Assembly (NCBI GenBank): GCA_008632985.1
Contig: QPGO01000266.1
Coordinates: 1-64,000 of the forward strand
Direction: 5' to 3'
From: Psammoneis japonica
Lineage: Eukaryota
DNA length: 64,000 nt
This document shows, in pieces, positions 22,931-47,263 of this stretch. The notes under the pieces are model-generated. The model was given only the letters and a program-made list of their open reading frames with translations. It had not been told where the DNA came from and searched no databases. The position numbers and the translations under genes are program-made. Each line of letters opens with the position of its first letter. Within the stretch, counting starts at the first letter, position 1.

Positions 22931-23032
22931 CTTGGCGCCACATTGGGCACAAACACTTTGCCTGGATCGGTCAAAATCAAAGCAAAAGCATGAAACTTTC
23001 ACCACAAGTTTTAAAATTACACCAACAGAGAC

Positions 23033-24227
23033 ATGGTCTTGAGTGAAATTATCAACAATGCCCATGCATTTGAAATAGCTCTTGAAAACCGCGGACGCTT
23101 CATCCGTGGTAGCCACGTGCAAGCGACACCTCGCTCGACATCTACATTCGTTGACAAACGCGATGTACCACAACTGGTCAAAGTGTGTGAGACTGCTACT
23201 GCCAGAACTCCTGAGGAGAACAAGGAGTTACTAAATACTCTGGCAGAACATGCTGCATATTTGGCAGATGAGGTACCAACCCTTGCATCCGACGAGATAC
23301 ATCTCATCATCGACTCGGGTGCTTCTGTCACAATTTCAAACAATGAACATGACTTTATTGGTTACATACGACCTGTCCAAAACTTGGACTTAAAGGGCAT
23401 TGCATCTGGCCTAGCCATTGAGGGCGTTGGCACGGTGAGATACGGCTTTATGGATGACGATGGCAACAATTTTACTGTTGATATCAACAATGTACTGCAT
23501 GCACCCACCTGCCCGGTTCGTCTACTATGCCCTCAACAAGTGGCAGCTGCTAGTCCTAATGAGGACACAGACGGGTTCTTTATAAGGGGTAAGTCCATGA
23601 CAATGATCTATGGACAACATCGCAAAACCGTGCGACACCATCACGAGTCGAATCTACCGATTCTCACTACGGCTCCAGGCTTTGGTAATTTTCGAGCTTT
23701 CTGCTCTGACATTAATGCAGATGGTAAACTGCCACCTCGCACCAACATAAAGGCACATTCGGCTTCGTATCCGGCTTTTGCTGTCACAACAAGAAAGCAA
23801 AAGGCGGCAGCCAACACAAACAAACAACAGACTTCTGACAATCAGCAGAACAAAAAGCCAAACAAAAATGAAAAGAAACCAAGGCCTACTCAGCCTCAAC
23901 AGGACTTGCCAGTCCACGAGGGAGGTATAGAAGACAACCTACTTCCCATCCAACGCAACATGTTGAAATTACACCATCGTATGGGACACGTTGGTTTTGA
24001 ACAAATCAAAGAATGGGCCAAAATCGGCACCGTGCCGAAACGCTTTGCAAAGTGCGAAGCTCCAGTCTGCAAAGCATGCGCTTATGCAAAAGCCAAGCGC
24101 AAGGCAGCTCAACGTGGTCACCGTATTGATGAATGCCACGACAACGCTCCAGGTCAAGGAGCATCCGCGGATCAACTCGATGCGAGTCATCTGGGCCTAC
24201 TTCCTACTTCTCGTGGTAAACCAACTA
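23033..24227 (+). pseudogene. pol: Copia element 2 pol, 5' part (protease, pre-integrase HHCC zinc finger, start of integrase)
   Basis: LIIDSGASVTISN; HHRMGH...CKAC; SADQLD...RGKPTT; the frame resumes at 38564 once the insertion is removed. Confidence 0.9.
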
Positions 24228-24704
24228 CATCAGAGGCCCGAATTCATGAATCATTGTATGCTGGTACCAGCATGGGAATGTTGTATCCTAAATTTGTGTT
24301 TTACCACGAATCCGCAGATTTATGATAAATCGGCATTATTTATGGTTAATCACGCCGATTAACATTAATCAGCGTGATTTATAATAAATAAATGTCCATT
24401 TCCATCAATGAATGTCCGACAAAATCAACAAGTGTCCGTGGCAATAAATGAACAGTTCTTGTTTTTAATCTGTAATGTACAACGCAATAAAGTATGCTCA
24501 CAAACCAGTCACTTTACTGTCAACAACATTGATTGTTGCTGTCTGCTGGGCAACGATCGAATCCAATGTACAGATTTGTTTTAAATCTCCCATGTGTTTG
24601 CAAATAAGTGGAGTCACAGATCCCGTCTATTTGCTACGTTTCTGTTACTACAACTGATTTTCCATAAGTGCACATGAATCTCATTGCTACTTAGTTACTC
24701 TTCA

Positions 24705-26177
24705 CTAGACTGGAGTCAACTCCAGTTCGTAGATTTCCTCGCAGTTGAGCATCTGCTCTTCCTCGTCGTCCGAGTCTTCCTTGTTTTCCTCCGCCGCTTG
24801 TTTCTCTCGCTTGGCGTCAATGGCCCTGTAGAGTTCTTCAAAGCGCTCGAGTTGTTTGCTTGCAACGTCTTGCTTGATTTCCTTGACAAGTTCACAAAAG
24901 AACTTGTTCGCTTTCGGTGACCATCCCTTGTTCTTCCGCGGCGTCTTTCGCTTCTTCCTTGCCATACCGTCTTCTGCCGAATCCGTTGGCTTCGCGGCCG
25001 TGAAGTGCTTGAGTCTCCTGACGGACTTCCTCTTCCGGTTGGACAGCTCCTTCTGGTCTGTAATGTTCTCCACATTCTTTTTTAGCTCTTTCGTCACGTC
25101 TTGTAGTGCTTTCACACGCTCGCCCGTCTTTGCTTTGTTTCTGACCTGTTTGATCACCGCGTTGCGCTTCTTGGTGTATTCTTCTCTTGTCTTGATGAAC
25201 TTCTCTTTGAGCTCTTCGACATCAGTTTCTTCCTCCATCGTGTCTTGTGGGTCTTTCTCAAGGAGTGAGAACTTGCTCTTGTTTTCATCGTCCTTCTCCT
25301 CGAGCATGGTCATGTCCGGCAGGAATGTCTCGCATAAGTCGTTCCTGTCACCTGTGGGACACCCGTCATCTTCAATTGGTGCCTCGTACTCCGAAACCAG
25401 TGTGCTACCCTCGTCTCTGCTCTTGTAGTCGGCATGCCATGCGTCGTAGTTATTCTTGAGGCTCATGAGTGCATGTGCCTCGGCGCACGACGTGCCCATA
25501 CTCTTGCCCTTGGAGAGTGTCTCCTTCCAATGAGCGTCTCCAACAATGGGGCGCAAGATGTAGTCGCAGAACACCATGTGCAATGTTGGATTCTCCAAGC
25601 GGCGTTCGAATCTTTCGACGGACGGCAAGATGCAATTGTGTTCCTCGCAGTATGCACAAAGATCTGCACTCACATGTAAATCCAGTGCGACGACTGTGTT
25701 AGTTGCACTCTTTGCAATCAGGATTCCTTCCAGGCTGCACTCACTGTGGAACTTGTCCTGCTGGGCCTGGCATGCGTTGGATCTCTTGATGGACATCCAA
25801 TCCTGGCACATTTTCTTTTCCTTCATTGTCAGCCATAGATGCTTGAGGTAGGATTTCTGCGCCTCTTGTGGCAGTTGTGGTAGCATCCCGTCCATAAGGA
25901 GTTTGCTGCAATTCTGGGCGTAGTCTCTGTGCATGAGTCCTGATTCCTCCAAATCCTTTGGGTCAAAAATGAATATGATGTTCAGGAAAAGTGTCTCCTT
26001 GACATGGTCTCTCACCTTGGCTGTGTCCCGCATAACCTTGGCATCGTCTGCGATCCACTCACTGGTGTTCACCTCTGTTACGACCTGGGTTGTCATGTTG
26101 GATCTCGCCGCATTTGTTTTTTGTGTGGTGATTCCTGACTCTGTTGAGTCTTGTGGATGATGGCCGTTCCTTCCCAT
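24705..26177 (-). CDS. Transposon accessory protein of unknown function, charged coiled-coil C-terminus; probable 81-nt in-frame intron 25664-25744
   Basis: 490-aa open frame, divergent from the transposase; GTGAGT...ACTAAC...GCAG intron signals. Confidence 0.8.
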   Translation of the reverse strand: MGRNGHHPQDSTESGITTQKTNAARSNMTTQVVTEVNTSEWIADDAKVMRDTAKVRDHVKETLFLNIIFIFDPKDLEESGLMHRDYAQNCSKLLMDGMLPQLPQEAQKSYLKHLWLTMKEKKMCQDWMSIKRSNACQAQQDKFHSECSLEGILIAKSATNTVVALDLHVSADLCAYCEEHNCILPSVERFERRLENPTLHMVFCDYILRPIVGDAHWKETLSKGKSMGTSCAEAHALMSLKNNYDAWHADYKSRDEGSTLVSEYEAPIEDDGCPTGDRNDLCETFLPDMTMLEEKDDENKSKFSLLEKDPQDTMEEETDVEELKEKFIKTREEYTKKRNAVIKQVRNKAKTGERVKALQDVTKELKKNVENITDQKELSNRKRKSVRRLKHFTAAKPTDSAEDGMARKKRKTPRKNKGWSPKANKFFCELVKEIKQDVASKQLERFEELYRAIDAKREKQAAEENKEDSDDEEEQMLNCEEIYELELTPV

Positions 26178-26550
26178 TTGTTATGATCCTTCTCTGTCCT
26201 TTAGAATAACATAGAGGACTTGAATCGTTGGATGTGCTCAGGCTTTGATGTATGTTCTTTACAGTTCCCGAATTTTTTCTTATATTTCAAAAAAAGAACT
26301 CATGGTAATTCAAATCCAATGTCTTGTCGAAGGAATGGATATGATTATTACGCAGTCCTCCCTGTTTGGTTTTCGGCCAGCTCTCAACGGCTAGGGCTAT
26401 TCAGTGTTTGCCATAGTGGCTTTGAATTTAAATCAGTGGGAGCTTCCCCCCAATAAAATGACTGAAAATCAATCTGGCTAGTGCCAAATCAATATTCTGC
26501 AGTCCATTTGCGTCTGTGCTGTCCTTTTACAATCTTGTGCCTTATGCATC

Positions 26551-29500
26551 ATGGTTCGTTTGCACTGCCGCTACCAACGTCGGTTTGGTCCAATCAGCCA
26601 CAGTGCTTCCACCACACAGCAACTGTGCACGTTCTCCCAAGCCACAGCGTTGCTCCTGCAAGAGCAGCGCTCTCAAAAATCTGCGGCCTTGTCCGGTCAA
26701 GAATTTTCGAATCCTGATCCGTCTGATTCCTCTAATTTTGCCCCTCCTGATGTCCAGGAAGATGGAGGGTTCCACGACGACAACGCTTTCTCCCCCTCAG
26801 GCAATGATGATGGCACGACAAGCCCTCCTCCAGAGGACGATGAAGATTATGTGGAGGAAGGTGAAGAATCCGATCTTGACGGCAACGACGGAGGCTGGGA
26901 CGATAGCTCCCAACATGACATGTTTCCAGGTCCTCCTGTTGATTCTTGGAATTCCGACGACGAATCGGAAGATGGTCCGCCTCATGCAGGAGAGGGGCCA
27001 CCAGGTCCTCCAATTGAGAGCAGCAGTGCTGGTCCAAGTGACAACGACCCTCCTTTGAGTGGATCATCACCGACGTTTACTCTTGCCGAGGAAGCATCTT
27101 TGGAGCTGATAACTCTTTGTGACAGTTCTGGCATGACTCGCAAGTTTTACGGGAAGTTGCTTGCCCTGTTTCATCGGTTCCGCAAGAGGAAATTCAATTT
27201 TGAAAATGCACTTGGTCGAGACAAGTTGGTTGAGAACTTGAGTAAGAAGGTGTGTATGCCCAAGCCCGACACCCGCATCATTGGTGGCCGCGAAGTAACT
27301 CGTTTCTGCATGCTTGACATGTTGCGAGACCTACTCCGTCATTCCTTGTTTGATGACGAGCACAACCTCAACGTGAATAAATCTATGCAGGATCGCTTCA
27401 AGAAGTTCATCCTGGTTGAAGACACCAATCTTGGTGAGACAATGTCTAACAAATGGCATTCTGACACCTATGACAACCTTCCAGAAGACTTCGATCCAGA
27501 GAAGGACTTGCTTCTGCCCATTGCGTCTTATGCGGACCAGACGGGTACCGATGCATATCAACGCTACCCCCTGGAGCCCTGGCTGTTTTGCATCCTTCTC
27601 GCCAAGAGGCACGTTCGTGAGCGTGATTGTGCGTGGCATCATCTTGGCGTTATTCCGAGTCTTGACAAGGGCGGGACAGCTACCACTGTGGATGATAACG
27701 GCAACGTAAATGAAGATGAGGTTCAAGCAGCTGCAGGTGACTCTTCTTCGTCGTCCTCCAACATCCAAGCTTGCCACGACATGCCATCATTCCTGTTGGA
27801 AGATCTGAAGTCTCTGCAGGCGGAGCCTCCCCTGCTGCGTGTAAACATGGGCGGCATTCGCCGTCTTGTGCAAATCCTGATTGTCCAAGGCCCAATTTTG
27901 GGGGATCAGAAGTCTCAAGATTACATCTGCGGTCGCAAGGCCACCAATGGTGGCGGTGCCGGTCGAGTACACCGTTTAAGCATGTGCTCTGCGACACAAG
28001 CGTCTAATACATTTCTACCAACCAACGCGGACGGCCTTTCGTTTACACCAATCAACGTCAGTGTAGTGTCTCGTCTGAACGAGTTGGCACTTGGATACGG
28101 CGCATCCAGAGCGGTGCTTGAAAAGGACAGTGCCCTGGATGGGTACCTGAAGAGGCAGCAGAAGCTAGCAATTGCCCTGCTCTCACGTCCCCACATGATG
28201 CATCCGCTTCGCAACGCATTTGAGGGTGTCGATTTTGGAACTAACCCCTGGGGTGTGTTTGCAGCCATGACCGATGATCACCTCCATTCGTGGGAAGGTG
28301 GTGGAGGAGAGAACGTCGCTCAAGTGTCGTACTTTGGAATGACAAAGACGGAGAAAGAAAACTTTGAGAGTGAACTAGTTGCGGTTGTAGGATCGACCAG
28401 GTCGACTTCCCTTGCGTCCTATCCCAGAGGGCATTTAAATTCAGGGTTTAGCCGCATGACTCTCCAGACCCACGCGGAGAAGATGGGATGCCTTTTTTAC
28501 CTATGTGTTGGAATGCAATTTAGCAAGCCATGTGAGATCATGGAAACGGCACACGCCAGACAAAAGAACAAGTACCAAACGTTTCCTACGGCTTCTAAAC
28601 TTGCCTCGTTGCGGAAACCAAAGGCTACAGACAAGAAGGGAGGTGCGAAAGGTTCTTCCCCAGCTTCCCAAGATCAGGGTACACCTTCAGAAGGTCAGAG
28701 CGTGCGTCCCTCTGTTGGCTGCAAACAATCAGGTTCCAGCAGTAGTTTCGCTCGACACCCGAACAAGAGGACAAAGTCATCTCAGCAGGCGGCCCGACAA
28801 AGAGCAGCACATAATTCGGCATCGGAAGAACCAGACAAGAGTGTTTCTGATAAGGAGGACGACGATGGCGAGAAGAAAGAGAAAGACAAGAAACCTCTCC
28901 CTCCCTCCTTTTTTCCGTTACGGAAGGACACATTTTATGCCACGGATAGTGACACCAAAGATCCTTTTGATCGCAAACCAGAAACAATCCAGTACGTGAT
29001 CAAGCATCTAAAGCTCCATGGATTTGGTTTTTTGCTCGAAGAAGACTTTGATGATTTTCAGCTTGACCAGTTGTTTGTTGAATCATGGAAGATCCTCAAG
29101 AAAATCCAGGCGAAGGTTGAGGATTCGTATCCTTCCTCCCAAGACGTTGCCTCCGTCGACTGTCCTATTATTCGTGACCGATGTGACTGTTTGTTCCAAC
29201 GACAAAGCCGAAGGCCAAGGCTAACCAAGGTGGAGCAGTGCATTGGCACGCGCTTACGCAAGACTGTTGCAAAGAAAAGGGTGGATCTTTCATCCTTGCC
29301 AGTAGTGGGACAAGAAGACAACGAGCGTGAAGAAGACACACACAACCCTTGTCAGTTCTCTTACCCGATGGAGGGTTGCATTGTGAAACACCGTCGGAAG
29401 AAACCCACAATCAAGGGCAATGGATACACGGGTGCCATCTTATCTGACATGACGACGTGCTCCTCCTTCTTGGAGTACATTCTCTGCTACCACGCCTTCT

Positions 29501-30621
29501 GTCATTATTCGTATCTTTTGCCGAGAGAGATGCAGTTGGACTTGGTCACTCTCGACTTTGGNNNNNNNNNNNNNNNNNNNNNNNNNNNNNNNNNNNNNNN
29601 NNNNNNNNNNNNNNNNNNNNNNNNNNNNNNNNNNNNNNNNNNNNNNNNNNNNNNNNNNNNNNNNNNNNNNNNNNNNNNNNNNNNNNNNNNNNNNNNNNNN
29701 NNNNNNNNNNNNNNNNNNNNNNNNNNNNNNNNNNNNNNNNNNNNNNNNNNNNNNNNNNNNNNNNNNNNNNNNNNNNNNNNNNNNNNNTACCAGACTTGTG
29801 AACGGGTTTGTGAGTTCATGTTATACAATTCTTGCTTGGACATAATGTTGAAGCAGAAAGAGCAAGCAACTAGCGATGGTGAACCATCAGTATCGTCATC
29901 CGATGACAATGATGACGAGCCCACAGCCACCTTTACCAGGAAACAGCCCCACTTCATCTTCCTTCGAGACGACTTTGACAATGTATTGGCAATTGATCGT
30001 TTTGGAAAATCGTCCAAGACAACCAAGTCCACCGGCCATCCCTGTCGTGCCTTCCTTGAAGCCCTTCAGGAACTGGAGCCAGATCAGCAATGCTTTGACA
30101 TCTGGACGGAGGCGAAGCTGTCCAACGGAGAGCATTTACGTGCGTGCCCGCAATGCAAATCCAAAGAGGGACCATGGTTTGACTGGGCTGAAGTTGACTT
30201 TGCAATGGGCGATGGTTCTGCCCAACCATTCCCCTCCCGTGTGATTGGTTTTTACCGGGCAGAGGATGATGTTTTGAAGGCAATTATTCACTCTGTTCAT
30301 TACAAGCTGGCGACTGCCACTGAGTCGGACTTTGGGGACACTAGACTGTTCACTCACTACCGACAAGAATTCCAAGCCAACGGGAAACCCTCGCTACGTA
30401 CATGCCGGCTGGATGAGATCCAACGCGGCATTCTCTGCTTCATGTTCCAACGACACAAGGACCCAGTCCCACCAACCGTGCGTAATCCGGCCAGCAGAAG
30501 AGAGCACCGAGTTATGGTTGTCCGTCCTCGTTTGGACTGGGCAAAAACATTCGTGGAGTGGACCAGAGAGATGATGGATCGAGAGGAAAACGCGGAGGGT
30601 TCGGACAAGTTCTCTTTTTAG
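26551..30621 (+). CDS. Plavaka/CACTA-like DDE transposase (spans an assembly gap; true start uncertain)
   Basis: LLPIASYADQT, YPLEPWLF, WHHLGVIP, ILGDQKSQDYICG, DDHLHSWEGG and C-terminal PWFDWAEV motifs; lies within the TIRs. Confidence 0.8.
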   Translation: MVRLHCRYQRRFGPISHSASTTQQLCTFSQATALLLQEQRSQKSAALSGQEFSNPDPSDSSNFAPPDVQEDGGFHDDNAFSPSGNDDGTTSPPPEDDEDYVEEGEESDLDGNDGGWDDSSQHDMFPGPPVDSWNSDDESEDGPPHAGEGPPGPPIESSSAGPSDNDPPLSGSSPTFTLAEEASLELITLCDSSGMTRKFYGKLLALFHRFRKRKFNFENALGRDKLVENLSKKVCMPKPDTRIIGGREVTRFCMLDMLRDLLRHSLFDDEHNLNVNKSMQDRFKKFILVEDTNLGETMSNKWHSDTYDNLPEDFDPEKDLLLPIASYADQTGTDAYQRYPLEPWLFCILLAKRHVRERDCAWHHLGVIPSLDKGGTATTVDDNGNVNEDEVQAAAGDSSSSSSNIQACHDMPSFLLEDLKSLQAEPPLLRVNMGGIRRLVQILIVQGPILGDQKSQDYICGRKATNGGGAGRVHRLSMCSATQASNTFLPTNADGLSFTPINVSVVSRLNELALGYGASRAVLEKDSALDGYLKRQQKLAIALLSRPHMMHPLRNAFEGVDFGTNPWGVFAAMTDDHLHSWEGGGGENVAQVSYFGMTKTEKENFESELVAVVGSTRSTSLASYPRGHLNSGFSRMTLQTHAEKMGCLFYLCVGMQFSKPCEIMETAHARQKNKYQTFPTASKLASLRKPKATDKKGGAKGSSPASQDQGTPSEGQSVRPSVGCKQSGSSSSFARHPNKRTKSSQQAARQRAAHNSASEEPDKSVSDKEDDDGEKKEKDKKPLPPSFFPLRKDTFYATDSDTKDPFDRKPETIQYVIKHLKLHGFGFLLEEDFDDFQLDQLFVESWKILKKIQAKVEDSYPSSQDVASVDCPIIRDRCDCLFQRQSRRPRLTKVEQCIGTRLRKTVAKKRVDLSSLPVVGQEDNEREEDTHNPCQFSYPMEGCIVKHRRKKPTIKGNGYTGAILSDMTTCSSFLEYILCYHAFCHYSYLLPREMQLDLVTLDFXXXXXXXXXXXXXXXXXXXXXXXXXXXXXXXXXXXXXXXXXXXXXXXXXXXXXXXXXXXXXXXXXXXXXXXXXXXXYQTCERVCEFMLYNSCLDIMLKQKEQATSDGEPSVSSSDDNDDEPTATFTRKQPHFIFLRDDFDNVLAIDRFGKSSKTTKSTGHPCRAFLEALQELEPDQQCFDIWTEAKLSNGEHLRACPQCKSKEGPWFDWAEVDFAMGDGSAQPFPSRVIGFYRAEDDVLKAIIHSVHYKLATATESDFGDTRLFTHYRQEFQANGKPSLRTCRLDEIQRGILCFMFQRHKDPVPPTVRNPASRREHRVMVVRPRLDWAKTFVEWTREMMDREENAEGSDKFSF
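29562..29787. other. Assembly gap (226 N)
   Basis: Run of N. Confidence 1.
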
Positions 30622-30680
30622 ATAAATTAACATGTAAACACCTACAATGCAACTTACATAACAAGGAATACCGTGTCCGT

Positions 30681-31748
30681 TCAAACACTGAAATGGGCGT
30701 GGGCAACAGCAAGTGCATCTGTATATTCTTGAGTAGGCTCTGGTACATCGAACTCACACCTGTTCCTGAAATGGCCTAATTGAGACTCGATCTTCAAAGC
30801 CAATTCGAGGATGTCTTCATTTGCCTTCGCTTCACCATTCATGAAGGTGACCGCACTCCACATCTCTTTGTTAAATTGTGGAGATTCAAATTCCAGCTGA
30901 CTACAATGGACGAAACTCCTAACCATCTTCCGTTCATATTCCCTGCCTCTCTTGAAGGCCTCAATCAGCAAGATCATCGAGTTTTTCAATGCCCCCTGCT
31001 CATAGTTCAGAAAGCGAAAATCGCGTGGACCATCTGATGGAACGACTATGCCTTCAATGAGTGGCTTGACAACATTCTGGAGAGTACGAATTAGAATCTT
31101 AATAGCCTCGTGCTGTTGGTCCACCGTCTCACTGCCGGTTACCTCTTCCGTTTCTAACAAATTGCAACTCATAAAAAGAGGCGAATCATAGCTCAACGGC
31201 AGGAACAAGGCAAACGGTGTTTCTTCTTGTTGTGTACCAACAACACGAAGAGGTAGGCCTTGCGCTGCCACATCAAATTGGTCTCCAAGCAGTACCCTTT
31301 GGAGTGCAATTTCTGCATCGCTGAATTCCCTAAGAGCACGTATGTACGCATTGTCAGCGTAATGACCACGCACACCACCAATCAAACTGTCGACGAAAGC
31401 ATTCTTCATTTGTGTTGGGTTAGAGTTTGTGTTTGGGTCTTGCTCATGTTCTAGATGACGATGAGCCCTCATTGCCATTTCACGTGAATTTACCACCCGA
31501 TTGATAGAATGAAGGACGGCTTGTTTCTTCGCAATTGCAACCCTTTCCTCAGGATTGCGTGGTGGATCCGAGTGAACCCTGTCCTCGACAGAAGCCCTCA
31601 CATGCTGACCAAGATCCTCAGCGGCCCTAAGACGTAATTCCTGGTCTGACAAATTCAGATCAAGAAGCCGACATAACGACTCGGGCCAAACTATTTCCTC
31701 TTCCTCGTCCGACATGATAGTAATCTCCTCCACTTCCTGGAGAGTCAA
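30681..31748 (-). CDS. Transposon cargo, hypothetical helical protein (~345-355 aa)
   Basis: Long ORF with normal protein composition; convergent with the transposase. Confidence 0.7.
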   Translation of the reverse strand: MTLQEVEEITIMSDEEEEIVWPESLCRLLDLNLSDQELRLRAAEDLGQHVRASVEDRVHSDPPRNPEERVAIAKKQAVLHSINRVVNSREMAMRAHRHLEHEQDPNTNSNPTQMKNAFVDSLIGGVRGHYADNAYIRALREFSDAEIALQRVLLGDQFDVAAQGLPLRVVGTQQEETPFALFLPLSYDSPLFMSCNLLETEEVTGSETVDQQHEAIKILIRTLQNVVKPLIEGIVVPSDGPRDFRFLNYEQGALKNSMILLIEAFKRGREYERKMVRSFVHCSQLEFESPQFNKEMWSAVTFMNGEAKANEDILELALKIESQLGHFRNRCEFDVPEPTQEYTDALAVAHAHFSV

Positions 31749-31962
31749 GTGTCAGCTGTTGTGACACGTGTGAAAAGAGGAAGTTCTGTTCGTGCTTTTG
31801 TGTGCAAGGTGTTCGTCGGAAAAAGATGTGACGGTCGTGCGTCAGCATTCCCGTTGTCTGTCCATCCACTGACCAAGTCAACCTCAACGCACAACGTACC
31901 AACAGGCCAAGGTTCCAACTGATCCAACCGACCAACGGAAATGGCGGGAGTGCCACAACACA

Positions 31963-32682
31963 ATGGAGGCCTCCTGCGTTGGTGCCCTTCATGTCCTTCT
32001 TGGACAAGGACGTGTCCCTGTGTGGAAACGCATCTTTGAGCACCTAGATGAGAGGGACAGCCGTTTACTTGCAAGTGTTTTCCGAGTTGGAAGCCGATTC
32101 CTTGACGATGTAGCTGACATGGGTTGGCAAAGGATTTCGGAAAATCCAGTGTACAGCAACGACGCATTTGGAGGCAGTCCTAGGATGAAGGTGCAGCGAA
32201 GGGCCCGGGCAATAGGAGAAATTGATTATCTTCATTACCACGTCAATGGTTTTGAAGGTTTCAGGGAGGAATTGTACGAAGCAATCGACACAAATGAAAG
32301 ACTGTTCCATCAGTGCAACAGGTTCCAACATTTCCTGTCGATTCGCACAAGTGATTTTGAGATTCATTATGAACAAGGTGCACCCCATCATTCAAGCACG
32401 CATGTCACTTACTTTGAAGACTGGGTGCCTCACACTTTTATGTATTGTGAAGAAGGGGTGGATCACTACCTGTTGAATTTTTGGTTGCAGGACTTAAACA
32501 TCCGTATCCAGAGACCGAGAAGACGAAAACGACCAGACGGAAGTGAAGTTCTCCCAAGCGTTGCATTGGTTGCTTACGATTGCGATGATCTTCGTTTATG
32601 TTCACCACGTCGTGTCTGTGCCCTTCCTGGCATTAGCGTTGAGCATGATTTAATGAGACATGTCAACGGAACGATTGTGTGA
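31963..32682 (+). CDS. Transposon cargo, hypothetical protein with a possible N-terminal F-box-like motif
   Basis: 239-aa ORF; VPVWKRIFEHLDERD...LASV resembles the F-box pattern. Confidence 0.6.
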   Translation: MEASCVGALHVLLGQGRVPVWKRIFEHLDERDSRLLASVFRVGSRFLDDVADMGWQRISENPVYSNDAFGGSPRMKVQRRARAIGEIDYLHYHVNGFEGFREELYEAIDTNERLFHQCNRFQHFLSIRTSDFEIHYEQGAPHHSSTHVTYFEDWVPHTFMYCEEGVDHYLLNFWLQDLNIRIQRPRRRKRPDGSEVLPSVALVAYDCDDLRLCSPRRVCALPGISVEHDLMRHVNGTIV

Positions 32683-32945
32683 CTTGGCAATCATGATTAT
32701 CGACCCCTGAATTTGCAGCATCGCAATGATTCTTGCCCTCCGATCATAGGAGGCAATCTGTTTCTGGTAGAAAACCAGCTTGTAGGCATGCGCCTGTTCA
32801 TCAGCGACCGAGCATCGGACATGGTTGGGAGGTATTACTCTCGCTATCTTGCGTTGTTTTGCAATTGCTGCTTAGCGGACGTACCCCCCACCAATGCGCC
32901 GTCGGCACAGTGGGTCTATTGAGAACAATCCTCACAACCTTTAAA

Positions 32946-33723
32946 CTAGCGCTTTTTCAACAGTAAGAATTTGGAGGATGACGGCTCATTCAGCGTCTCA
33001 TAGAATTCCTTGGCTTGTTGCACTAACCACTGTGGAAGCGACTTGGTGATCAGCTCCATGGTCACTTTACCCGTTGTGTACCTGTCCACCTGGTCTTCGT
33101 CGTTGAGACCCCATACCTTCTGGCAGACGTCTTTTGGAATACCCTTGGAGTGAAAAGAGAGTGAAGATTCGACATCAGGATCAAGTTCCCATCTGTAGTC
33201 TAGCTCGATCTTCTCAAGGTTGCAAAGTAATCCCACAAAAGAGCACATTGTCCAAGGCAAAATAATCCTGGAGTCTTGCGGTAACCCTTCCGCAAGAGCC
33301 GTGAGGTTGTTGTCAAAGAAACCACTACCCAGGCGTTTGTCTTGCCAGTGGGCGGGAAACCAATGGCAATCCATGACCACCTCCCTGATGGCAGTTATGT
33401 CGACTAGCCGCCCTTTGCAATTCTGTGGTGAAAGTCCTTGAAGAAACATTGCACCGCAGATGACGATTGGGATCCCCGCTCTGCAAGGACACCGTGTAGA
33501 TGTTCTTCACACCTTCGGTTCCTTCGACAAAGAGAATTCGTCCATTGTCGCTCCTTTCTTGCGCGGACTTAAACAAGGAACAGCCTTTAGGCGAGAATGC
33601 TTTGGGAGCAGTCAGTTCATTGGCTGCCTCTGTTCTTGTCATAAGAAGATACAATTGGTTCTGTTCACTCGTTGACTTGTCTCTAGTGGTGGCTTCGATG
33701 TTAGCAATAGTCGGGTCGGCCAC
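32946..33723 (-). CDS. Transposon cargo, hypothetical; two overlapping frames (frameshift or intron near 33450)
   Basis: ORFs 33325-33723 and 32946-33449 have protein-like composition; may be 3' exons of the 1406-aa gene. Confidence 0.5.
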
Positions 33724-36700
33724 TACATGGTGTTGTTCGGCAGTGGCATCACCAACTTCGTTGGAATCGAGTGATGGATCGCTTCAATTGAAACCATCAA
33801 AAAACAAACGAAGCAAAGTGTCATTAGAAAGGACAGCAATGCTGCACATGTTTCGAAAGTAGACTCGGTCATGATGGAGATCGCGTCCCAATATCTTGTG
33901 CCGTATCGCTTGACGCTAGGAGCTGCATCGTCTCCGATTAGCATGAACAAATGTTGACCACGAGCGAAATGCTCTTGAATGATTCCTTCTACCCGATTAG
34001 GAGCCGCCCAATCGCATAGGACACATTCTCTACAGGAACCGCCATGATGCTGAATGCCATGTTCAACCACAAGGGCTTCTGAGCACACTGCACGATCCTC
34101 TCCATCTAAGTGCTCCAATTGCTTTGCTGCACCCAGATTGGACACAGGATAAACCAGGTTCCTCAAATCTTTGTGGGGATGAACAACAATTCCAGCACCA
34201 ATGAGCATCTGGACTATCATCATCAACCTAAACTCGCTGATGTCCGTTTTCTGTGGAGGGAACTCCTGCAGAGTTGCCCGGAACTGGCTCTCCAGCATGG
34301 CGTGGTGGAAGTCAGAAGTACCAGTGTGTTCGTCTATCCACTTCAACAATTTCAGAATTTCGTCTACCATTTGATCCATTACGTTTGACATCTGGAGATT
34401 ACCGACACGTGGTTCGTTGGTAGTGCAAGCATCGTCTTGTAGCAGATGATCAATGTCAGCATCCGCAGGTGACAATTCTTCCTCCATAAATGACAAACGC
34501 CCTTGGCACCTGCGTTTACCTCTTCTTCTAGTGTGGATGTCTCCGTCTGGTTTCCTCTTTCCCTCACCATTTTCCTCGGGGATCACACAGCATGTCTCGA
34601 TGAAATTGTAGCCACTGGGGTTAAGACGGTTGGGAGTCACGCCAATGTCACCTGCACCAGTGCCAAATAGCCTCTGGGATAGTTCGTAGTACACAAGTGC
34701 TGGGTCGGCACCGGGATCAGTCAATTCTTCCTCATACTCCATGCCAATGTGGAAGAAACGATGGAAGCCAGTCTGATACGAAGCCACAATGGCTAGCCTG
34801 ACAACCTTGCGAATTCCAATTGCTTCACGAACGAGAAACAGGATAGTGATGCCCATGGACAACCACAAATCACGAATGCAGGACGTTGGAAACTCCATCC
34901 TATCCATTACAATCGAACCGTCCTTGTCCAACTCCTTTTTTTCGTAGGGGCAGTAATCGTCCAAGAACATGTGTTCCGGATGTCGATGGTTCAAATCTTT
35001 GGGTGGCCTATGAGGACCCTTGTACTTGGAGATAAACTCGTCATGTGCTCGCTTTATGTGAGTAACGTGCTTGAGCATCCTGGTCCTCAAGGGCTTTAGC
35101 GTCAAGGATCGGTCGAAATGTTGTCCAGCCCTTTTACGGCTGTTGGCAATGAATTTGACAGAAACGACATTACCAAGCTTGTCCAGGATGAAAATACAAA
35201 GAGCACCAGTCTTGGTGTAACCATGACAAACACAGTTTTCTCCATCATAATGGATTTTGGTAAAATGAGGCATGGTCTTGACTTGAACGGCACCAAGCTC
35301 ATTCCTTGCTACTTTTGCACCAAGCCCATCATGAAGAGCCATCCCACACAGTTCGGTTTGAGCGTCGAGGCCGTACGGAGCCAGGTTACCGAAATACTCA
35401 ACCTCTAGCTCGTCGTGACACCTCTGCATGGCATCATAAATGTCAGCCAGCATAGACTTGATCTGGTTGCGAGTCGTTTCATCTTTCTCTTTTTCAAAGA
35501 CTCCAAAACCAAATCGACGTGCAGGGATTGTCTTGCCGTTATCGAGAGTTTCATTATCCCGACCACAGGCACCAAATTCTATCCTGTGGTTGTCAGCATC
35601 ATCGTCATCGTCACGGTCATTGTTTTTCTCACCGTGTTCCTTTACAAAACGAGCTATCATTCCAGCATCTATTTTGAGAGATCCGAAATGACGCTGCCAA
35701 ATACGTCCGGACAATCGCAGAATGGCAGCATCATCCTGGACACGTTGAGCCTTGGGGGGGACAATCACCAACTCACGGTCATGGTTCAGAGCAGAAGGAA
35801 GAAGGTCGGTCGTCTCAAAGGAATGGAGGTTGTGGTGGAGATCGTCAACTAAATGGCAATCAGCAGGGGAATGGTGAAGGTTTAACTCGCGATATGTTGA
35901 TTGCTCATTATCCTCATCGTCCTCAGACGCATTGCATGAAACACGGAGCCTGGGAGCGAACTTGGTTAAATCGGAAGGCGACGCAACGCTGCAACAATAA
36001 CCACGGGGAAAACGAGCATCAAGGGGAGCACATCTTGGGGAAAAAGTTGCAGCAATGGGCTTGTCAGGGATGCTAGGCTTTTCAGCAGGAGACGTTGCAA
36101 TAGAAGCTTCTCCTCCTCCCGTGGGTGGATCAGCAATGACAACATGGTCATCAGCAGCATCGGCTGCATCGGCGGCATCCGTAACCGAAACGCCCGAAAA
36201 TGACTGGCAGTCTTGTGCGTCGTCAACATCCTCGTTTGCTGGAGACAGCTGGGATGAGAGTGCACTGAAGGAAGCATTGGGCGCAGCTGAAGTGGAATCA
36301 GATGCGGCGTTGGTGTGCTGAGAAGCGGCGTTGTTTGTAGCCTTCTTGTTAGAAGAAGGGGGCGGGGGGGCTAGAGAACCAGCGGAGACACGACCAGAGG
36401 CCACACTTTGTTTCCTTCTCCTTTTGGTTGATGACACACACTTCTCCTTCGCAGCGCGGGAAAGGTACGGGTGCATCAGATCACGAACACGAGAGCGGAC
36501 AATTACAAGGTTCCTGAACTTGTAACGATTCGTGTTACCACAGGATTGCTTGAACGTAGAGTGGAGCTCTCGTTCCACTAACTCTTGGTGCCGTCGTGCC
36601 ATACCTTTCGCGGTGGCTTGGGTCGACACATAATCCTTGACACCATCCAACCGCTCAGTAAGGAGAATCTTGGCAACCTTCCCATTCTTCAGTTTTGCGT

Positions 36701-37943
36701 CCGTGTTGATCAGAGTCAACACGTTGTTGCACATTTGTAGAAATTGCTTCCTCTTTTGGCAACCAGAAAATATCACAGTTGACCAGTGACGATAGTTCCC
36801 ATGCTCCTTCTCCACGTGAGGGAGAAAGCAACAGTCAACGATGGCCGTGGCAATGCTAAGACACTGTGCCGTGAAGTCCAATTTGGATTTAAAGCTCGAA
36901 AGATGAAGGAAGCAGTCCTCATTGCCAAGCTTTTCCCGTTGGATCATCTTGTATAAATCACTCATTATTGCATGGAGGTTCTTGCCGAATTTGGTGAGAT
37001 TGCCAAAGGACTCAGCAAGCTTCCGGTGCTCAAGAACATGGCTCCCATCTTTGCGACGGTGGCACAACCAACCACGGCTTTTCACATAATGAAAGCCATC
37101 ATCACACCCAAGAGATTGACCAACTACATCGCAAACAGCCAACACTTCCTCGAAAAAATGGGAGGACCGATTCTGGCGGTTGTAACAGATGAAGGGAAGA
37201 GCAATGAGATCAGGAGAGGGAGTCCACTCGTGAGATTCAAGAAACTTCTGACGACGGCGCTGCGTCTCAACAAGTTTTGTGAAACGCTTCTTGGAAATAC
37301 AGGCACCGCCAGTGCCCCCAGTGAAAACTTGGGCTTCATCGTCAAGCGCGAGGGGGGGTTTAGTGCGTAGCCCGACGGTGGTCACCGTGCTTTTATCGTC
37401 AGAGTCTGAGTCAGAAAAGTCGTCGCCATCGTTTTCGTCAGGAAACGAAAGATCACTAGCACACCCTGGGTTGTCGGGGGCGGCAATGTGGCCGGAATTG
37501 AGTTTTCTAGCAGGGACGTCAAACGATGTGTCGTCTGGAGGGCCACCGGAAACCTTGTCAGTACATGGAGTGGCCACCACCGTGCCGCTGCCCACGGAAT
37601 TGTCGGAATCGTCATCTTTTGGAGGAGAAGAACCCTTCAAATCATCATCGGGATGTGTTGCAGAGGCTTCTTGAGATGCCGTGGGGGGCAAGACACCGTC
37701 AGAAGGCCGTGCTGCCAATTCTGGAGGGGAAACAAGTTCCTGAAGAGATCCGTCGTGGTCGGGTGACGTGACATAAAACGCCGTTACGCCGGTTCCGGAA
37801 ATAGAATCTTCATCTGATGAGTCGGAGAGTGAGGAAAACACTCGCTTTCGCTTGGTTGTTGCTTTGAAGCGAGGCATGCGAGCGGCAGGAACAGCGTGCG
37901 GAGGGAAAAAGCGCCATGGGCAGTCAGAGCACCACAATCCCAC
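33723..37943 (-). CDS. Large cargo protein; candidate TET/JBP-like dioxygenase motif plus aGPT-Pplase/HhH-like C-terminal region
   Basis: 1406-aa uninterrupted ORF; HYDGEN at 35235-35252; ISEFRLMMIVQML...LGAAKQL...ECVLCD near 34010-34250. The confidence refers to coding status; the product call is tentative. Confidence 0.8.
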   Translation of the reverse strand: MGLWCSDCPWRFFPPHAVPAARMPRFKATTKRKRVFSSLSDSSDEDSISGTGVTAFYVTSPDHDGSLQELVSPPELAARPSDGVLPPTASQEASATHPDDDLKGSSPPKDDDSDNSVGSGTVVATPCTDKVSGGPPDDTSFDVPARKLNSGHIAAPDNPGCASDLSFPDENDGDDFSDSDSDDKSTVTTVGLRTKPPLALDDEAQVFTGGTGGACISKKRFTKLVETQRRRQKFLESHEWTPSPDLIALPFICYNRQNRSSHFFEEVLAVCDVVGQSLGCDDGFHYVKSRGWLCHRRKDGSHVLEHRKLAESFGNLTKFGKNLHAIMSDLYKMIQREKLGNEDCFLHLSSFKSKLDFTAQCLSIATAIVDCCFLPHVEKEHGNYRHWSTVIFSGCQKRKQFLQMCNNVLTLINTDAKLKNGKVAKILLTERLDGVKDYVSTQATAKGMARRHQELVERELHSTFKQSCGNTNRYKFRNLVIVRSRVRDLMHPYLSRAAKEKCVSSTKRRRKQSVASGRVSAGSLAPPPPSSNKKATNNAASQHTNAASDSTSAAPNASFSALSSQLSPANEDVDDAQDCQSFSGVSVTDAADAADAADDHVVIADPPTGGGEASIATSPAEKPSIPDKPIAATFSPRCAPLDARFPRGYCCSVASPSDLTKFAPRLRVSCNASEDDEDNEQSTYRELNLHHSPADCHLVDDLHHNLHSFETTDLLPSALNHDRELVIVPPKAQRVQDDAAILRLSGRIWQRHFGSLKIDAGMIARFVKEHGEKNNDRDDDDDADNHRIEFGACGRDNETLDNGKTIPARRFGFGVFEKEKDETTRNQIKSMLADIYDAMQRCHDELEVEYFGNLAPYGLDAQTELCGMALHDGLGAKVARNELGAVQVKTMPHFTKIHYDGENCVCHGYTKTGALCIFILDKLGNVVSVKFIANSRKRAGQHFDRSLTLKPLRTRMLKHVTHIKRAHDEFISKYKGPHRPPKDLNHRHPEHMFLDDYCPYEKKELDKDGSIVMDRMEFPTSCIRDLWLSMGITILFLVREAIGIRKVVRLAIVASYQTGFHRFFHIGMEYEEELTDPGADPALVYYELSQRLFGTGAGDIGVTPNRLNPSGYNFIETCCVIPEENGEGKRKPDGDIHTRRRGKRRCQGRLSFMEEELSPADADIDHLLQDDACTTNEPRVGNLQMSNVMDQMVDEILKLLKWIDEHTGTSDFHHAMLESQFRATLQEFPPQKTDISEFRLMMIVQMLIGAGIVVHPHKDLRNLVYPVSNLGAAKQLEHLDGEDRAVCSEALVVEHGIQHHGGSCRECVLCDWAAPNRVEGIIQEHFARGQHLFMLIGDDAAPSVKRYGTRYWDAISIMTESTFETCAALLSFLMTLCFVCFLMVSIEAIHHSIPTKLVMPLPNNTM

Positions 37944-38563
37944 GCAGATCCCATGGGGTCAAGATCCCCATGAGAAAACCGATGAGCTCGGTTTTTCCCA
38001 AAAACACAGGGAACTTGAGTTCGTAGGAGGGGAAGTAGGATGGACAAAGCCTGCAACCGGATTCCATGCGATTGTGTTGCAAAATGAATTGTTGTGGGAT
38101 GAAGGATGATGAATCACTGAGGCATGAATCCCAGGATCCAACGGACAACTCTCTCTGCTGCCCCCAGAGCAGACACAGCTGAAATTTCGTAAAATGATTG
38201 ACATCCACCATGAGGACGGGAATACAGTGTTTTTATCGAAAATACGTTAAAGACTCTGAATGCGAATGTTGTCAGTTGGAAGGCAACAACATTGTCTGGA
38301 TGTGAGGAAAGTCATGCCATGTGTGATAAATTTATTGGCACACAAGTAAATAACTGCACATAAGTCAAAAATGTCTCCAAGCAACACACACGTGTAATGC
38401 CAACAAGCATGGTGCAAATAAATAAAAACAGTGCATTCCCAACAAGTGCATTGAAAATAAATCTGTCTGGTGCAATTTCAACAAGCACGCGCGAAAACGC
38501 GCCATGACACATTGGGGTCACAAGACATGTGACTACTGCCCATTTCTACGGGTCTCTGATGCA

Positions 38564-41500
38564 CTCGCAGGTGCAGACATTGTGCTCTGTGGATTGATCA
38601 CTTCTCTAGATTTATCCATCCTTGTGTGCAAGAGTCTGCTGGAGGAAAAGAGACCTTGACTGGCAAAACCAAGCTCGAGAGATTCGCAGCAAAACACAAT
38701 ATAAAAATCGAGCACATTCATGCCGATAACGGCATGTTCGCCGCCGCAGAGTTCATGCAACACTGCGCTGAAAACAAACAACGAAACTCCTTTTGTGGAG
38801 TAGGAGCACACTGGCAAAACGGCATCTCGGAACGCCACATAGGCGTCATTGCCTCAATGGCGCGAACATGCCTGTCACACGCTCAGTCCCTCTGGTCTGA
38901 TGTAGCAACCACGGAATTATGGCCATTTGCCATCAGACAAGCTGTCAATTTCCATAATGTGTGCATCCGAAAAGGAAAAGAGAAAAACCCCTGGGAGCCA
39001 TTCACCGACGAGAAAGTGCCATTTCAAATGGACGATTTTCGCGTGTGGGGGTGTCCTGTTTACATCGCGGACAAAAGTGTCCAAGACGGGACTCACATCG
39101 GAAGATGGGCCGAACGGTCACGGCAAGGAGTGTACGTGGGACATTCGCTGGAACATGCCAGTAATGTCTATTTGGCATGGGACCCCATAACCAAACACGT
39201 CTCGCCACAATTTCAAGTCACATTCGACGAAAACTTTACAACCGTAGCGCCTGGAAAGACATCAAGCGATGATCTTGAGGCAGCTCTTGAGAAATTATTT
39301 AATGACCATGCAAACACTTGGACTCACCATGATGAATATTTCGATCATAATCGATATTATTTTGAAAAGAATATTTGGAGTAAGGACGACTTGCTCCGAG
39401 AACACGGTATCGACCCTCAAGCATACAAACATGCGCAAAAGACCAATCACAAATCACGAGGGAGAAAAAGAGACCGTGCTGGACAAGAAAAGCCAGACGA
39501 TGACGATACACCATCTGAGATTCTGCCAGCTGTTGATGTCTCGGCCGACACACCGACACATGCGGCAGCTGCACTAGCAGACACGACGATACTAGCAGAA
39601 TTGGCACACGCTGAAGCCTCCGAGGCTGTGCCACCTGTAGCGGCAGGTTCTTTATCGGAGAGAGCAGAGGGGACCCACTCATTGTCAAACCGACCGCTGT
39701 CGGTTAACAATGCGACACCGTTGATTGTAGACAATACAGTCACCCAGGGCCCAACTGTGGCAACTCTAGAGGATGCTACAACTTCTTTACCAACGAAAGA
39801 AGCCCTCCAACATTTAAACGATGAAGCAGACTATGCTCGTCATCAATTTCATGAATACAAACGCCGAAAAGGTTTAGATGACGACGCGACTTGTACAACA
39901 GCACAGAGCAATACGAAAAACAGTAACTTACCTGACGCGAACGCGTACATCACAATACCTCTATACCATAAAGAAGTTGCAGCTGAATTATACGAAGAGC
40001 TCGCACATCTGATGGCACTTATGGGTTCAGTAGACAATGACATACTTCTCGACGAAAATATATGGAACGAATCCAGTCCACTCGCTTTCGAAGCAGCGGC
40101 ACTAGGTAACGTCGATACCCTGACCCAGGGCCAGATGAAAAGAGTGCCAGACCGCGCCGAATTTGAAAAAGCCCAAGTTCCAGAAATACAAGGGCTAGTA
40201 GATATGGACGTATGGGAATACATACCACGTTCTGAAGTACCAAAAGACCACCGGTTGTTAAATGCAATCTGGTCATACAAAAGAAAAAGGAAACCAAGTG
40301 GTGAGCTTTCAAAATATAAAGCTAGAATATGCGTCGACGGTTCCAAACAACAACATGGAATAGACTATTGGGACACATTCGCCCCAGTCGTCGCATGGAG
40401 TACGGTACGACTGATATTGTGTCTAGCGGCAATCACCGGTCTGAAAAGCAGACAAGTGGATTATGTGCAAGCATTTCCACAAGCAGAACTGGAAGAACCA
40501 GTATATATGAGACTCCCAGAAGGGTGGGAAGTGAAAGACGAAAATGGAAACATCATACCAGACATGGTATGCAAACTGAAAAAGAACTTATACGGCACGA
40601 AAACTGCTGCACGAAACTGGTTCCAGAAACTATCAAAGGGATTGGAACGACGCGGTTTCAAGAAATCAAAAATAGACCCATGTCTATTCATCAGAAATGA
40701 CTGTATCATCTGCTCACACACAGATGATTGTTTAGCATTCGCTCCGGCGAACGATGTTATCACTACACTCATACAAGAACTCAAGCAAGACGAGTTTCAA
40801 CTTACCGACGAAGGCGATGTATCCGCTTTCCTCGGCGTAGATATTACCAATACCGCAGACGGCGAGATCCATATGACCCAGACAGGTCTTATTGATTCTA
40901 TATTGAAAGACCTCGGTCTGAGGTCCCACAACAATGAACCATTACAGAACAGGCCACAAACAAAGGCTGCTCCGGCAGCACAAATGCTGCATCCTGACAC
41001 GAACGGTCAGGAGCGTCAAGAACCGTGGAACTACCGGTCTGTCATCGGAAAGATGAGCTTTCTGGCACAAATGACTCGACCAGATATTGCAATGGCAGTA
41101 CAGTACATATGTGCGCTAGATTTTCTAATTGCCCAAAGGCATTGCACGAACGAGCAGTTAAGTACATCGGACGTTATCTGTTGGCAACTTCAACAGACGG
41201 TATTAAGCTCCGGCCGAAAGGGAAATTCTCCCTGGATGGATATGTTGATAGCGACTTCGCGGGAATGTGGCACAGAAATTTTGCCCATCTCCACGATACG
41301 AATCGCACCTGTCACGATCAGGATATATTATCACATTCGCAGGCTGTCCAATCTATTGGAAGAGCAAATTACAAACCGAGATAGCTCTCTCCTCAACCGA
41401 GGCTGAACTTATTGCACTATCACAGTGCCTAAGAGAGCTACTTCCAATGAGAACTATACTAGAAGAACTGTCCAAAACCATGGATTTTGAACTGGCAGAT

Positions 41501-42098: not shown

Positions 42099-42912
42099 GA
42101 CCCGTCGTACTCGTGGCGGAGGGGTGTAATTCGGGGTGTAATTTTGGGGTGTAAAAACGCGCGTCGCGCGTTTTTACACCCCTCAAAAAAAATTACAGCC
42201 AACAAATAGGCCGCCAGAGGCATGTATTTTTTTCCTCTAAAAAATTCTGCGAGCCTGTAATTTTTCGTACGAAAACAGACTCATCATCGTCCATGACGGC
42301 AGATAACATCAGAATTGTCGAACAACAATGGCAACCAACAAGCAACAACGAACATCAGTCAATAAGAGATGTGAAAAATCGTTGCTGGGGAGCTATTATG
42401 ATGTGTTTATGAAAGAAAGAACGGCAAAAAACGATGAAATTGAAGTCAACGGAGAACAAAATGATGGCAACTCCATACCTTTTCAGAAGAAAAACACGTC
42501 ATATGGTTGCTGATACCTTAGATATGGATACATCAGTAACACATAATGTTAATCACGTTATCATACATCGATTAGGCTTGTCAGAACAGTGTTTTGACAT
42601 GTGTAAGGTCGCAGCGGAGCCGCCGAACGCCATGGTGGTTTGATGCAGTCAATAGCATGTTCAACCTCGCGTACAGATAAGTTGATTAAAAATGGATATA
42701 TGGTGTTATTCCTGATTGTGTATCAACATTTTCTCAGGAGTGTGTGTTCAACGGATATCATTGCTCGCAGAATTACAGATGCCAAGTTTCACAATCTCGT
42801 ACTCGTGCGAAAAATGGGTGTAATTTTGGGGTGTAAATTCGCGCGATGCGCGTTTTTACACCCCCAAATTACACCCCGAAATACACCCCAATTTCCACGA
42901 GTACGACGGGTC
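42099..42912. mobile_element. 814-bp MITE, PIF/Harbinger-like
   Basis: Perfect 18-bp TIR GACCCGTCGTACTCGTGG; 3-bp TSD TCA; subterminal GGGGTGTAA repeats and ~37-bp palindromes at both ends. Confidence 0.85.
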
Positions 42913-46802: not shown

Positions 46803-47263
46803 TGATGCATTTCACACCTGCTCATGGAAGAATTTACAAAGGCACATTAGTTAATGTTTTCATTTTCCGTGTTTTTACCTTCTGTGGTGTGTATACACAA
46901 TGCACTGTGCTCAAAGAACGAGTATAAACGAAAGTAGAATCAAGCATGAAAAGTGAAAATTATGAAATTAAATTTTACTCTGTGATTTTTGGTTTCTCCG
47001 AACGAGTTCTCAATGGCCTAAAGCTTCTGTACTGCTTCTACAGACAAAAGGCCTTTCGGAGGATATATTCATGACAACAGATTGTCAGGATACGATTGCC
47101 ATTGACACGTAAGATGTCAACATCGTCAATCGATCGTATTTGCAATTTTCAACATCCGATCAACTCTGTGTGATCGTTCTGTCCTTTGTACGTATCCAAG
47201 ACTGTGGTGCGATTGACATATAAATAATATATCTGAACATGCATATAACAGTCGCATGCTGCA
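46803..47263 (-). repeat. Gypsy LTR copy
   Basis: Direct repeat of 14712-15178. Confidence 0.88.

Follow-up and report, generated by a model that had tools for sequence, protein, structure and literature searches.

Genes for TET enzymes are already known on fungal transposons, and clusters of oxidase, kinase and transferase genes are already known from phages. PlavakaB elements have the termini 5'-CATCA..TGATG-3' and target-site duplications of 2–3 bp, and the same report places all TET+ Plavaka families in PlavakaB, in fungi (PMC12730594). Phage clusters that produce hypermodified thymidines combine a P-loop kinase and an amino acid:DNA transferase (AADT) with either a TET/JBP T-dioxygenase or a hydroxymethylase. 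Here we analyzed a stretch of 64,000 nucleotides from Psammoneis japonica (GCA_008632985.1, contig QPGO01000266.1, positions 1 to 64,000 of the forward strand), referred to as the window, which contains a Plavaka-type DNA transposon with a cargo gene, P0001. Its product is predicted to join a TET/JBP-like 2-oxoglutarate (2OG)/Fe-oxygenase fold to an AADT-like domain, two DNA-base-modifying modules for which we propose pyrimidine chemistry, and we give this reading an even chance of being correct. An initial annotation, made from the letters of the DNA, had proposed such a two-domain base-modifying candidate on a DNA transposon, and the proposal is supported by the predicted folds, the motif conservation and the transposon context.

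P0001 is an uninterrupted open reading frame (ORF) of 1406 aa on the minus strand (33723..37943). Its first codon is GTG and the earliest ATG is codon 23, which is the probable start. The motif strings on which the proposal had been built were all found in this ORF at the positions claimed: LGAVQVK (residues 883-889), TKIHYDGEN (895-903), GY (908-909), VSVKFIANSRK (927-937), ISEF (1235-1238), MIVQ (1242-1245), LGAAKQL (1270-1276) and ECVLCD (1306-1311). The span 33850-35650 that had been singled out corresponds to residues 765-1365.

P0001 belongs to an uncharacterised family. In an exhaustive HMMER search the family comprised 195 cluster representatives when the threshold was E≤1e-3, falling to 116 for E≤1e-10 and to 27 for E≤1e-30. 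With residues 700-1406 as the query, a word-indexed search gave three relatives out of 5019 candidates. Local phmmer comparisons delimited two conserved blocks, residues 700-1120 and 1185-1360, which are contiguous in the relatives and separated in P0001 by an insert of about 68 residues. Conservation was counted in a 134-row alignment (A1) as the number of rows with the residue among those covering that column. Besides the motifs discussed below, E882 (61/64), K889 (59/71), T912 (66/73), D921 (63/75), L1309 (51/65) and W1352 (52/55) are strongly kept, and the motif conservation in P0001 is beyond chance. In the columns of R787, R1024, R1239 and R1106, lost Arg residues are mostly replaced by C, W, Q or H (C 7, Q 4 and W 4 at R1239). 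This is the pattern that C-to-T changes at CGN codons would be expected to leave in transposon copies that are decaying and may be methylated.

The structure of residues 700-1370 was predicted by AlphaFold2 with A1 (predicted local distance difference test score, pLDDT, 90.1; predicted template modelling score, pTM, 0.88), and its fold was compared with 48,161 PDB representative chains in an unbiased VIA-align search. TET2 (Z 10.1) and NgTET1 (Z 9.8, root-mean-square deviation (rmsd) 3.5, 161/266 aligned) were found together with FTO (Z 8.3), CcTet (8.0) and ALKBH3 (7.4), and the chains with Z≥8 were three only, TET2, NgTET1 and FTO. At least 45 of the best 50 rows were named 2OG/Fe oxygenases; one was a non-oxygenase, gp46 at rank 9, and up to four had titles without a fold name. 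A second look gave Z 10.4 for TET2 (7ne6_A; rmsd 4.5, 199 aligned), 8.6 for CcTet, 8.5 for FTO, 6.3 for CMD1 and 6.1 for AlkB. The TET2 match covers model residues 11-249, that is, residues 710-948 of P0001 (35100..35816, minus strand). With Foldseek against the PDB, TET2 and CcTet filled the first nine rows (E 0.05-0.4) and CMD1, BcmE and FTO came next, and the named rows from BFVD included JBP1/TET proteins at E 0.09 and 0.9. Because named 2OG/Fe oxygenases dominate the list with TET-type nucleic-acid oxidases leading, the assignment of the modelled residues 710-948 to the 2OG/Fe-oxygenase fold, closest to the TET-type enzymes, is robust, and it bears out the TET/JBP-like region that had been suggested, with TET2, NgTET1 and CcTet as the best matches.

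Within this fold, H898-Y-D900-G-E-N903 (35235..35252, minus strand) has the HxDxxN pattern of H1382/D1384/N1387 in TET2, and its conservation among homologues, as claimed initially, is high (H898 66/71, D900 68/71, N903 63/71). The iron ligands of TET2 are H1382, D1384 and H1881 (PMC6244454). The only other near-invariant His of P0001 is H707 (38/39; 35823..35825, minus strand), which in the AlphaFold2 model is an isolated beta-bridge residue by DSSP, as is H898. In the canonical beta-helix, strand II neighbours strand VII, the bearer of the distal His. Because of this topology and the beta-bridge state, H707 might supply the third ligand from an N-terminal segment and is a candidate third metal ligand. 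TET/JBP enzymes carry an 'R-x5-a' motif, in which an Arg on the last strand binds 2OG and is followed after five residues by an aromatic one. R936 is kept in 62/76 rows and an aromatic residue or His occupies position 942 in 64/73, and the model shows 937-946 as a helix; K930 (63/75) is an alternative candidate for the 2OG-binding basic residue.

The C-terminal part was analyzed in the same way. Residues 937-1370 folded alone with pLDDT 87.1, and the best match (rank 1/48,161) was gp46 of phage PaMx11 (8z2m_A) with Z 6.6, rmsd 4.2 and 216/287 aligned. This protein is the 5-phosphomethyldeoxyuridine (5-PmdU) glycinyltransferase, a glycine:DNA transferase (PMC11472151). Z≥2 was reached by 23 chains and Z≥5 by gp46 only, which is set apart from the matches below it, a coherent group of HhH-GPD folds. 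The next matches were two AGOGs (Z 4.8), Tm1821 OGG (4.6) and a DUF2419 queuine-salvage enzyme (4.2), followed by AlkA and Mag1 (3.5) and, lower, another OGG, EndoIII-3 and ROS1; by their titles, 10 of the 15 rows after gp46 belong to the HhH-GPD superfamily, namely nine DNA glycosylases and the DUF2419 enzyme. With the full model of residues 700-1370, gp46 was the rank 9 match mentioned above. Residues 953-1350 (33894..35087, minus strand) are thus predicted to form a two-helical-bundle, HhH-GPD-like domain nearest to the AADT gp46, in agreement with the aGPT-Pplase/HhH-like region that had been read from the sequence.

The conserved residues of this domain were compared with the AADTs by profile. 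The gp46 sequence from the PaMx11 record belongs to Pfam ADDT (E 1.6e-27). In its structure, Glu243 and Thr244 hold a metal contacting O4 of the flipped thymine, and Cys247 has been proposed to attack C6 as the nucleophile (PMC11472151). In M6 gp51 and ViI gp247, the Cys and a Glu close to it are reported as essential (PMC8989533). When the P0001 family was aligned by hhalign with gp46 alone, RECVLCD paired with VETILCK (E 0.12). Against a 53-row ADDT alignment (A3) the E-value was 0.015, and 0.0035 when the insert was removed; the best local match then pairs E1306..C1310 with E243..C247 of gp46. The native score was 29.7, which none of 70 column shuffles reached (mean 14.8, sd 2.8, maximum 22.9), and the controls scored 20.3 (reversed) and 14.8 (N-domain profile against ADDT). 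E1306-C-V-L-C1310 (34014..34028, minus strand) is accordingly placed by hhalign as the counterpart of gp46 Glu243...Cys247, with E1306 kept in 52/65 rows and C1310 in 62/66, and this pair appears to match the essential Glu-x3-Cys dyad of the AADTs. H, D, E and C are all kept in 21/26 homologues that span both motifs.

Among the aGPT-Pplase motifs initially named, E..LC was thus retained and the other two were not. LGAAKQL as 'G.GA' was rejected, with the gp46 FG...G motif pairing instead with F1093-G-T-G-A-G1098 (34650..34667, minus strand; F143-G144...G148 in gp46), and ISEF..MIVQ as 'G.F...Q' was rejected with no pairing found. The FG...G pairing comes from a weak, greedy extension of the hhalign alignment only, which also pairs P1020/R1024 with P88/R93 of gp46; in A1 the three positions of the motif are kept in 67/71, 50/71 and 64/70 rows. 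Overall, the predicted structure contains a beta-helix and an HhH-like fold, and the motifs are conserved among homologues.

The gene resides in a PlavakaB-type DNA transposon of 14,336 bp (24227..38562) inserted in a Ty1/copia integrase gene. A pattern search found the left terminal inverted repeat CATCAGAGGCCCG at 24228..24240 (plus strand) and the right one, CATCAGAGACCCG, at 38549..38561 (minus strand; 12/13 identical to the left), flanked by the 3-bp target-site duplication ACT (24224..24226 and 38563-38565, plus strand), with one unpaired base between duplication and inverted repeat on each side. The terminal-repeat pattern has two matches in the window, which are the two element ends, and none is expected (100 shuffles). 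The copia polyprotein is split: Gag and the pre-integrase part end in ...SRGKPT at ACT 24224-26, the integrase restarts at ACT 38563-65 with RRCRHCALWIDHFSRF and is followed by the SH3 and RVT_2 domains, and deletion of 24227-38565 rejoins the integrase codons in frame. A young nested insertion is suggested because the copia frame is otherwise open on both sides. The ends of the element match the published PlavakaB termini, and the length of the duplication lies within 2-3 bp.

The transposase of the element is P0002 (1356 aa; 26551..30621, plus strand), assigned to the Plavaka type from the Pfam content of its homologues and its Atlas features. P0002 itself has no Pfam match at E≤1; its homologues (E 1e-79 to 2e-59) carry the precomputed family PF18759 Plavaka in 4/4 cases, and the Atlas language-model features give Plavaka 0.93. 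The P0001 element is apparently an intact 14.3-kb PlavakaB-type DNA transposon, and the inverted ends, the target duplication, the interrupted copia integrase and the Plavaka-type transposase confirm the assumption that the gene is transposon cargo.

The same gene pairing was found elsewhere. A metagenome scan with a 13-row alignment (A4) yielded 13 loci with P0001 relatives, and in 6/13 (L082, L087, L088, L089, L093 and L094) the tail of a Plavaka-type transposase lies just downstream of the cargo gene on the opposite strand, in a tail-to-tail arrangement. The full order of cargo gene, transposase and a 490-aa ORF is repeated in L087. Five of the remaining seven loci have <500 bp of downstream DNA, and no transposase was seen in the 803 bp downstream in L084 or the 1520 bp in L090. 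Because the pairing recurs, the cargo gene is considered a regular part of the transposon family. The terminal motif CATCAGAG is present as a single copy in each of L087, L089 and L090; a partner end was not seen, and borders could not be set there.

We infer the substrate, chemistry and biological role of P0001 as follows. The TET-like domain would oxidise the 5-methyl group of thymine or 5-methylcytosine (5mC) in DNA, and the AADT-like domain would flip out the oxidised pyrimidine. Cys1310 would then add to C6, assisted by Glu1306 as an acid or by binding a metal, and the oxidised group on C5 would be exchanged for a nucleophile or removed. The likely gain for the transposon is that its DNA would be marked or would escape silencing by methylation, an idea already put forward for fungal transposons that carry TET genes.

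Several observations weigh against this proposal. In A1 the conservation of every His downstream of HxD stays below 50%, and only two beta-strands follow HxD in the model before the helices begin, which agrees with the caveats raised initially, that the distal His could not be found and that the beta-helix looked shortened. The alignments to AlkB, ALKBH3, FTO, NgTET1 and TET2 stop within ~10 residues past the last strand of the target's double-stranded beta-helix and end at model residues 237-249. Because they end there, the P0001 strand 926-934 (VVSVKFIAN) most likely replaces strand VIII. Between HxD and this strand there is one further strand (913-920), and canonical enzymes have five; in the model, strands IV-VII, including the distal His, may have been lost, and the canonical 2-His-1-carboxylate triad is not demonstrated. 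In the C-terminal part, the Z of 6.6 for gp46 is middling in absolute terms, the best Foldseek match of the C-part model has E 0.66, and the hhalign match to A3 with the insert removed has a probability of 9% over 21 columns only. No Foldseek row for either model against PDB and BFVD reached E≤0.001, all being at E >0.04.

The family profiles weigh in the same direction. Neither P0001 (E≤1), nor the homologues P0003-P0005 (E≤10), nor 38 further homologues (E≤0.01) matched Tet_JBP (PF12851), and no hidden Markov model (HMM) match to ADDT (PF18724) was obtained for P0001 or the 41 homologues scanned singly. When the 134 A1 members were compared with Pfam (E≤10), Tet_JBP and ADDT were absent among the 25 of 60 families listed. 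The kinase is a further point: in the phage pathway, the 5-hydroxymethyldeoxyuridine (5-hmdU) DNA kinase, which supplies 5-PmdU, is needed before the AADT acts, and a Walker A scan of 24227-38562 gave no credible P-loop kinase ORF, the four Walker-A-like strings of the element lying in short ORFs or the transposase tail. Catalysis by P0001 is unproven because the canonical distal His and the kinase are missing. C5-methyltransferases can exchange or remove a 5-hydroxymethyl group that has not been phosphorylated, by adding a Cys to C6. By this analogy the AADT-like domain might use the oxidised base itself as its substrate, and the outcome could be substitution (hypermodification) or removal (direct demethylation).

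Other searches gave no family either. P0001 matched no Pfam family, its sole match being DUF7528 at E 0.15, below the cut-off; no relevant Pfam family was found for the 41 homologues scanned singly, and among the 134 A1 members (E≤10) no family occurred in >2 members. P0001 had no match in PHROGs. Against PDB sequences, the best E-value was 0.35 by phmmer (a septin) and 0.74 in a profile search, and residues 700-1120 gave no usable match in the ESM Atlas. P0001 is not classed here as a member of Pfam Tet_JBP or ADDT; it appears to work like, or derive from, both.

The missing distal His and the shortened strand count would also be explained if only the AADT-like domain were catalytic and the TET-like domain, having lost its iron chemistry, bound and flipped 5-methylpyrimidines, or bound a small ligand, and targeted the transferase. 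The retention of C1310 (62/66) fits such an arrangement, but H898 (66/71) and D900 (68/71) are kept to a degree unusual for a dead metal site, H707 (38/39) could be a replacement ligand, and an AADT-type reaction needs an oxidised, activated 5-methyl group from some source. We regard it as unlikely. The absence of HMM matches and the linkage of the cargo gene to the transposase (6/13 metagenome loci) would in turn suit a structural or regulatory factor of Plavaka transposition, for example an end-binding one like CACTA TnpA, in which the likeness of folds carries no catalytic meaning. This is rather unlikely: two independent domains each match DNA-base-modifying enzymes first among the 48,161 chains, and the conserved residues are the catalytic ones of those enzymes.

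The C-terminal domain could alternatively be an HhH-GPD DNA glycosylase that excises the oxidised base, so that oxidation and excision would feed base excision repair and result in demethylation. AGOG, Tm1821 OGG, AlkA, Mag1, EndoIII-3 and ROS1 all match at Z 2.2-4.8, with a Z of 6.2 for AGOG when the full model is used; the best match is nevertheless gp46, which is not a glycosylase, and the conserved motif is the Glu...Cys dyad of the AADTs. HhH-GPD DNA glycosylases have a catalytic Asp ~20 residues after the HhH hairpin. In A1 no conserved Asp was found in the ~20 residues after FG...G, the hairpin being placed from the weak extended alignment, and a glycosylase appears improbable. The proposal that joins oxygenase and AADT chemistry also has a version in which P0001 is a self-contained 5mC eraser that acts without repair. 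The TET-like domain would oxidise 5mC, the addition of Cys1310 at C6 would break the C5-C bond by dehydroxymethylation, deformylation or decarboxylation, cytosine would be restored, and the transposon would undo its own silencing. We see only a slim chance of this; if true, P0001 would be the direct DNA demethylase of the C-C-cleaving kind that has long been sought.

In addition to the two modelled domains, P0001 has a third conserved region on their N-terminal side, residues ~206-520 (36384..37328, minus strand), which was recognised from tblastn matches in L087, L088, L090 and L092 (alignment A5) and has no Pfam family. Dispersed Cys, His, Trp and Arg residues are conserved in it, for example in RGW...EYRR. 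The insert of residues ~1117-1185 (34389..34595, minus strand) is lineage-specific, being missing in the homologues, and has low model confidence; pLDDT is <50 over residues 434-477 of the 700-1370 model, the only disordered part. A 167-aa ORF (32946-33449, minus strand) adjoins the 3' end of P0001 and has a relative at L084:969-1217 (38% identity, tblastn E 2.9e-13), downstream of the homologous cargo gene in that metagenome contig. The final 50 residues of P0001 are not conserved, and because of this an intron and a further exon are possible at its 3' end; the 167-aa ORF may be a separate gene or such an exon. A search for sequencing runs found one DNA run, probably of the source sample, and listed no RNA runs.

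Next to the transposase, a Lys/Glu-rich ORF of 490 aa (24705..26177, minus strand) was found, which lies beside the transposase in L087 too (tblastn E 2.7e-27) and has no Pfam family. The five long ORFs of the element that were scanned in addition to P0001 have no Pfam family. The P0002 ORF contains 226 N at 29562-29787, an assembly gap or withheld stretch across which the frame is kept. The interrupted Ty1/copia element spans 23015-24226 and 38566-41406 and encodes Pol_BBD and gag_pre-integrase, then the C-part of the integrase, SH3_retrovirus and RVT_2.

Nested repeats form a mosaic across the whole window. Tandem arrays of a 10-bp unit (AAGTCAACAA-like, in two blocks) and of a ~177-bp unit with at least five copies occur in 10821-11205 and 48603-49541. 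Of a ~430-bp repeat (14725-15155, 46817-47246 and 50268-50577), two copies lie 32 kb apart in the same orientation (94% and 89% identity) and a third is inverted (92-98%). Duplicated blocks are also seen at 11.5-13.7 kb and 17.0-18.7 kb. A 62-nt inverted repeat with GC-rich palindromic cores lies at 42121-42889; its arms are 92% complementary, with 645 nt between them, and it could be a small non-autonomous element.

If P0001 is active, pyrimidines in the nuclear DNA of a marine eukaryote may be hypermodified, or a mobile element may demethylate that DNA. Transposons would then have a new way to evade silencing, and base-resolution sequencing chemistry could draw on a new source of enzymes. 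The family would also be a case of a TET-like fold that works although the canonical distal His is absent, or of one retained for binding alone. Literature searches whose scope lay outside Iyer et al. 2009 and 2013, which may bear on the point, found no eukaryotic transposon family that fuses oxidase and transferase folds, and the same searches, without those two papers and the supplements, found no Plavaka elements described outside fungi. The P0001 family reads as a variant among the TET-carrying transposons.

Compared with known systems, residues 710-948 have their best structural matches in the TET/JBP dioxygenases (TET2, Naegleria NgTET1, Coprinopsis CcTet and Chlamydomonas CMD1), with which P0001 shares HxDxxN. 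It differs from them in having no Pfam Tet_JBP match and no conserved distal His after HxD, in its near-invariant H707 upstream, and in having two strands only between HxD and the C-terminal helix. The top structural match of residues 953-1350 is to the AADTs, formerly aGPT-Pplase clade 2 (PF18724: PaMx11 gp46/PUGT, M6 gp51 and ViI gp247). Unlike these, the P0001 domain is eukaryotic, transposon-borne and fused to an oxidase fold, has no HMM match and no partner kinase that we could find, and is about 100 residues larger, with a beta-hairpin and a disordered insert; Trp146 and Lys150 of gp46 have no proven counterparts in it.

The same pairing of oxidase and transferase is found in the phage clusters for thymidine hypermodification (5mYOX T-dioxygenase or deoxyuridine monophosphate hydroxymethylase, 5-HMUDK kinase and AADT), in which the AADT-type transferase acts on the pyrimidine C5 methyl group in DNA. 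The phage enzymes are encoded by separate genes and include an obligatory kinase step, whereas here the two folds lie in one polypeptide and no kinase was found. The fungal TET+ PlavakaB elements have in common with the P0001 element the termini, the 2-3 bp duplication, a Plavaka transposase and a TET-like cargo gene. In contrast to the fungal elements, the relatives of P0001 came from metagenome and Logan/ENA records, none of them labelled fungal, and P0001 is far more divergent and is fused to an AADT-like domain.

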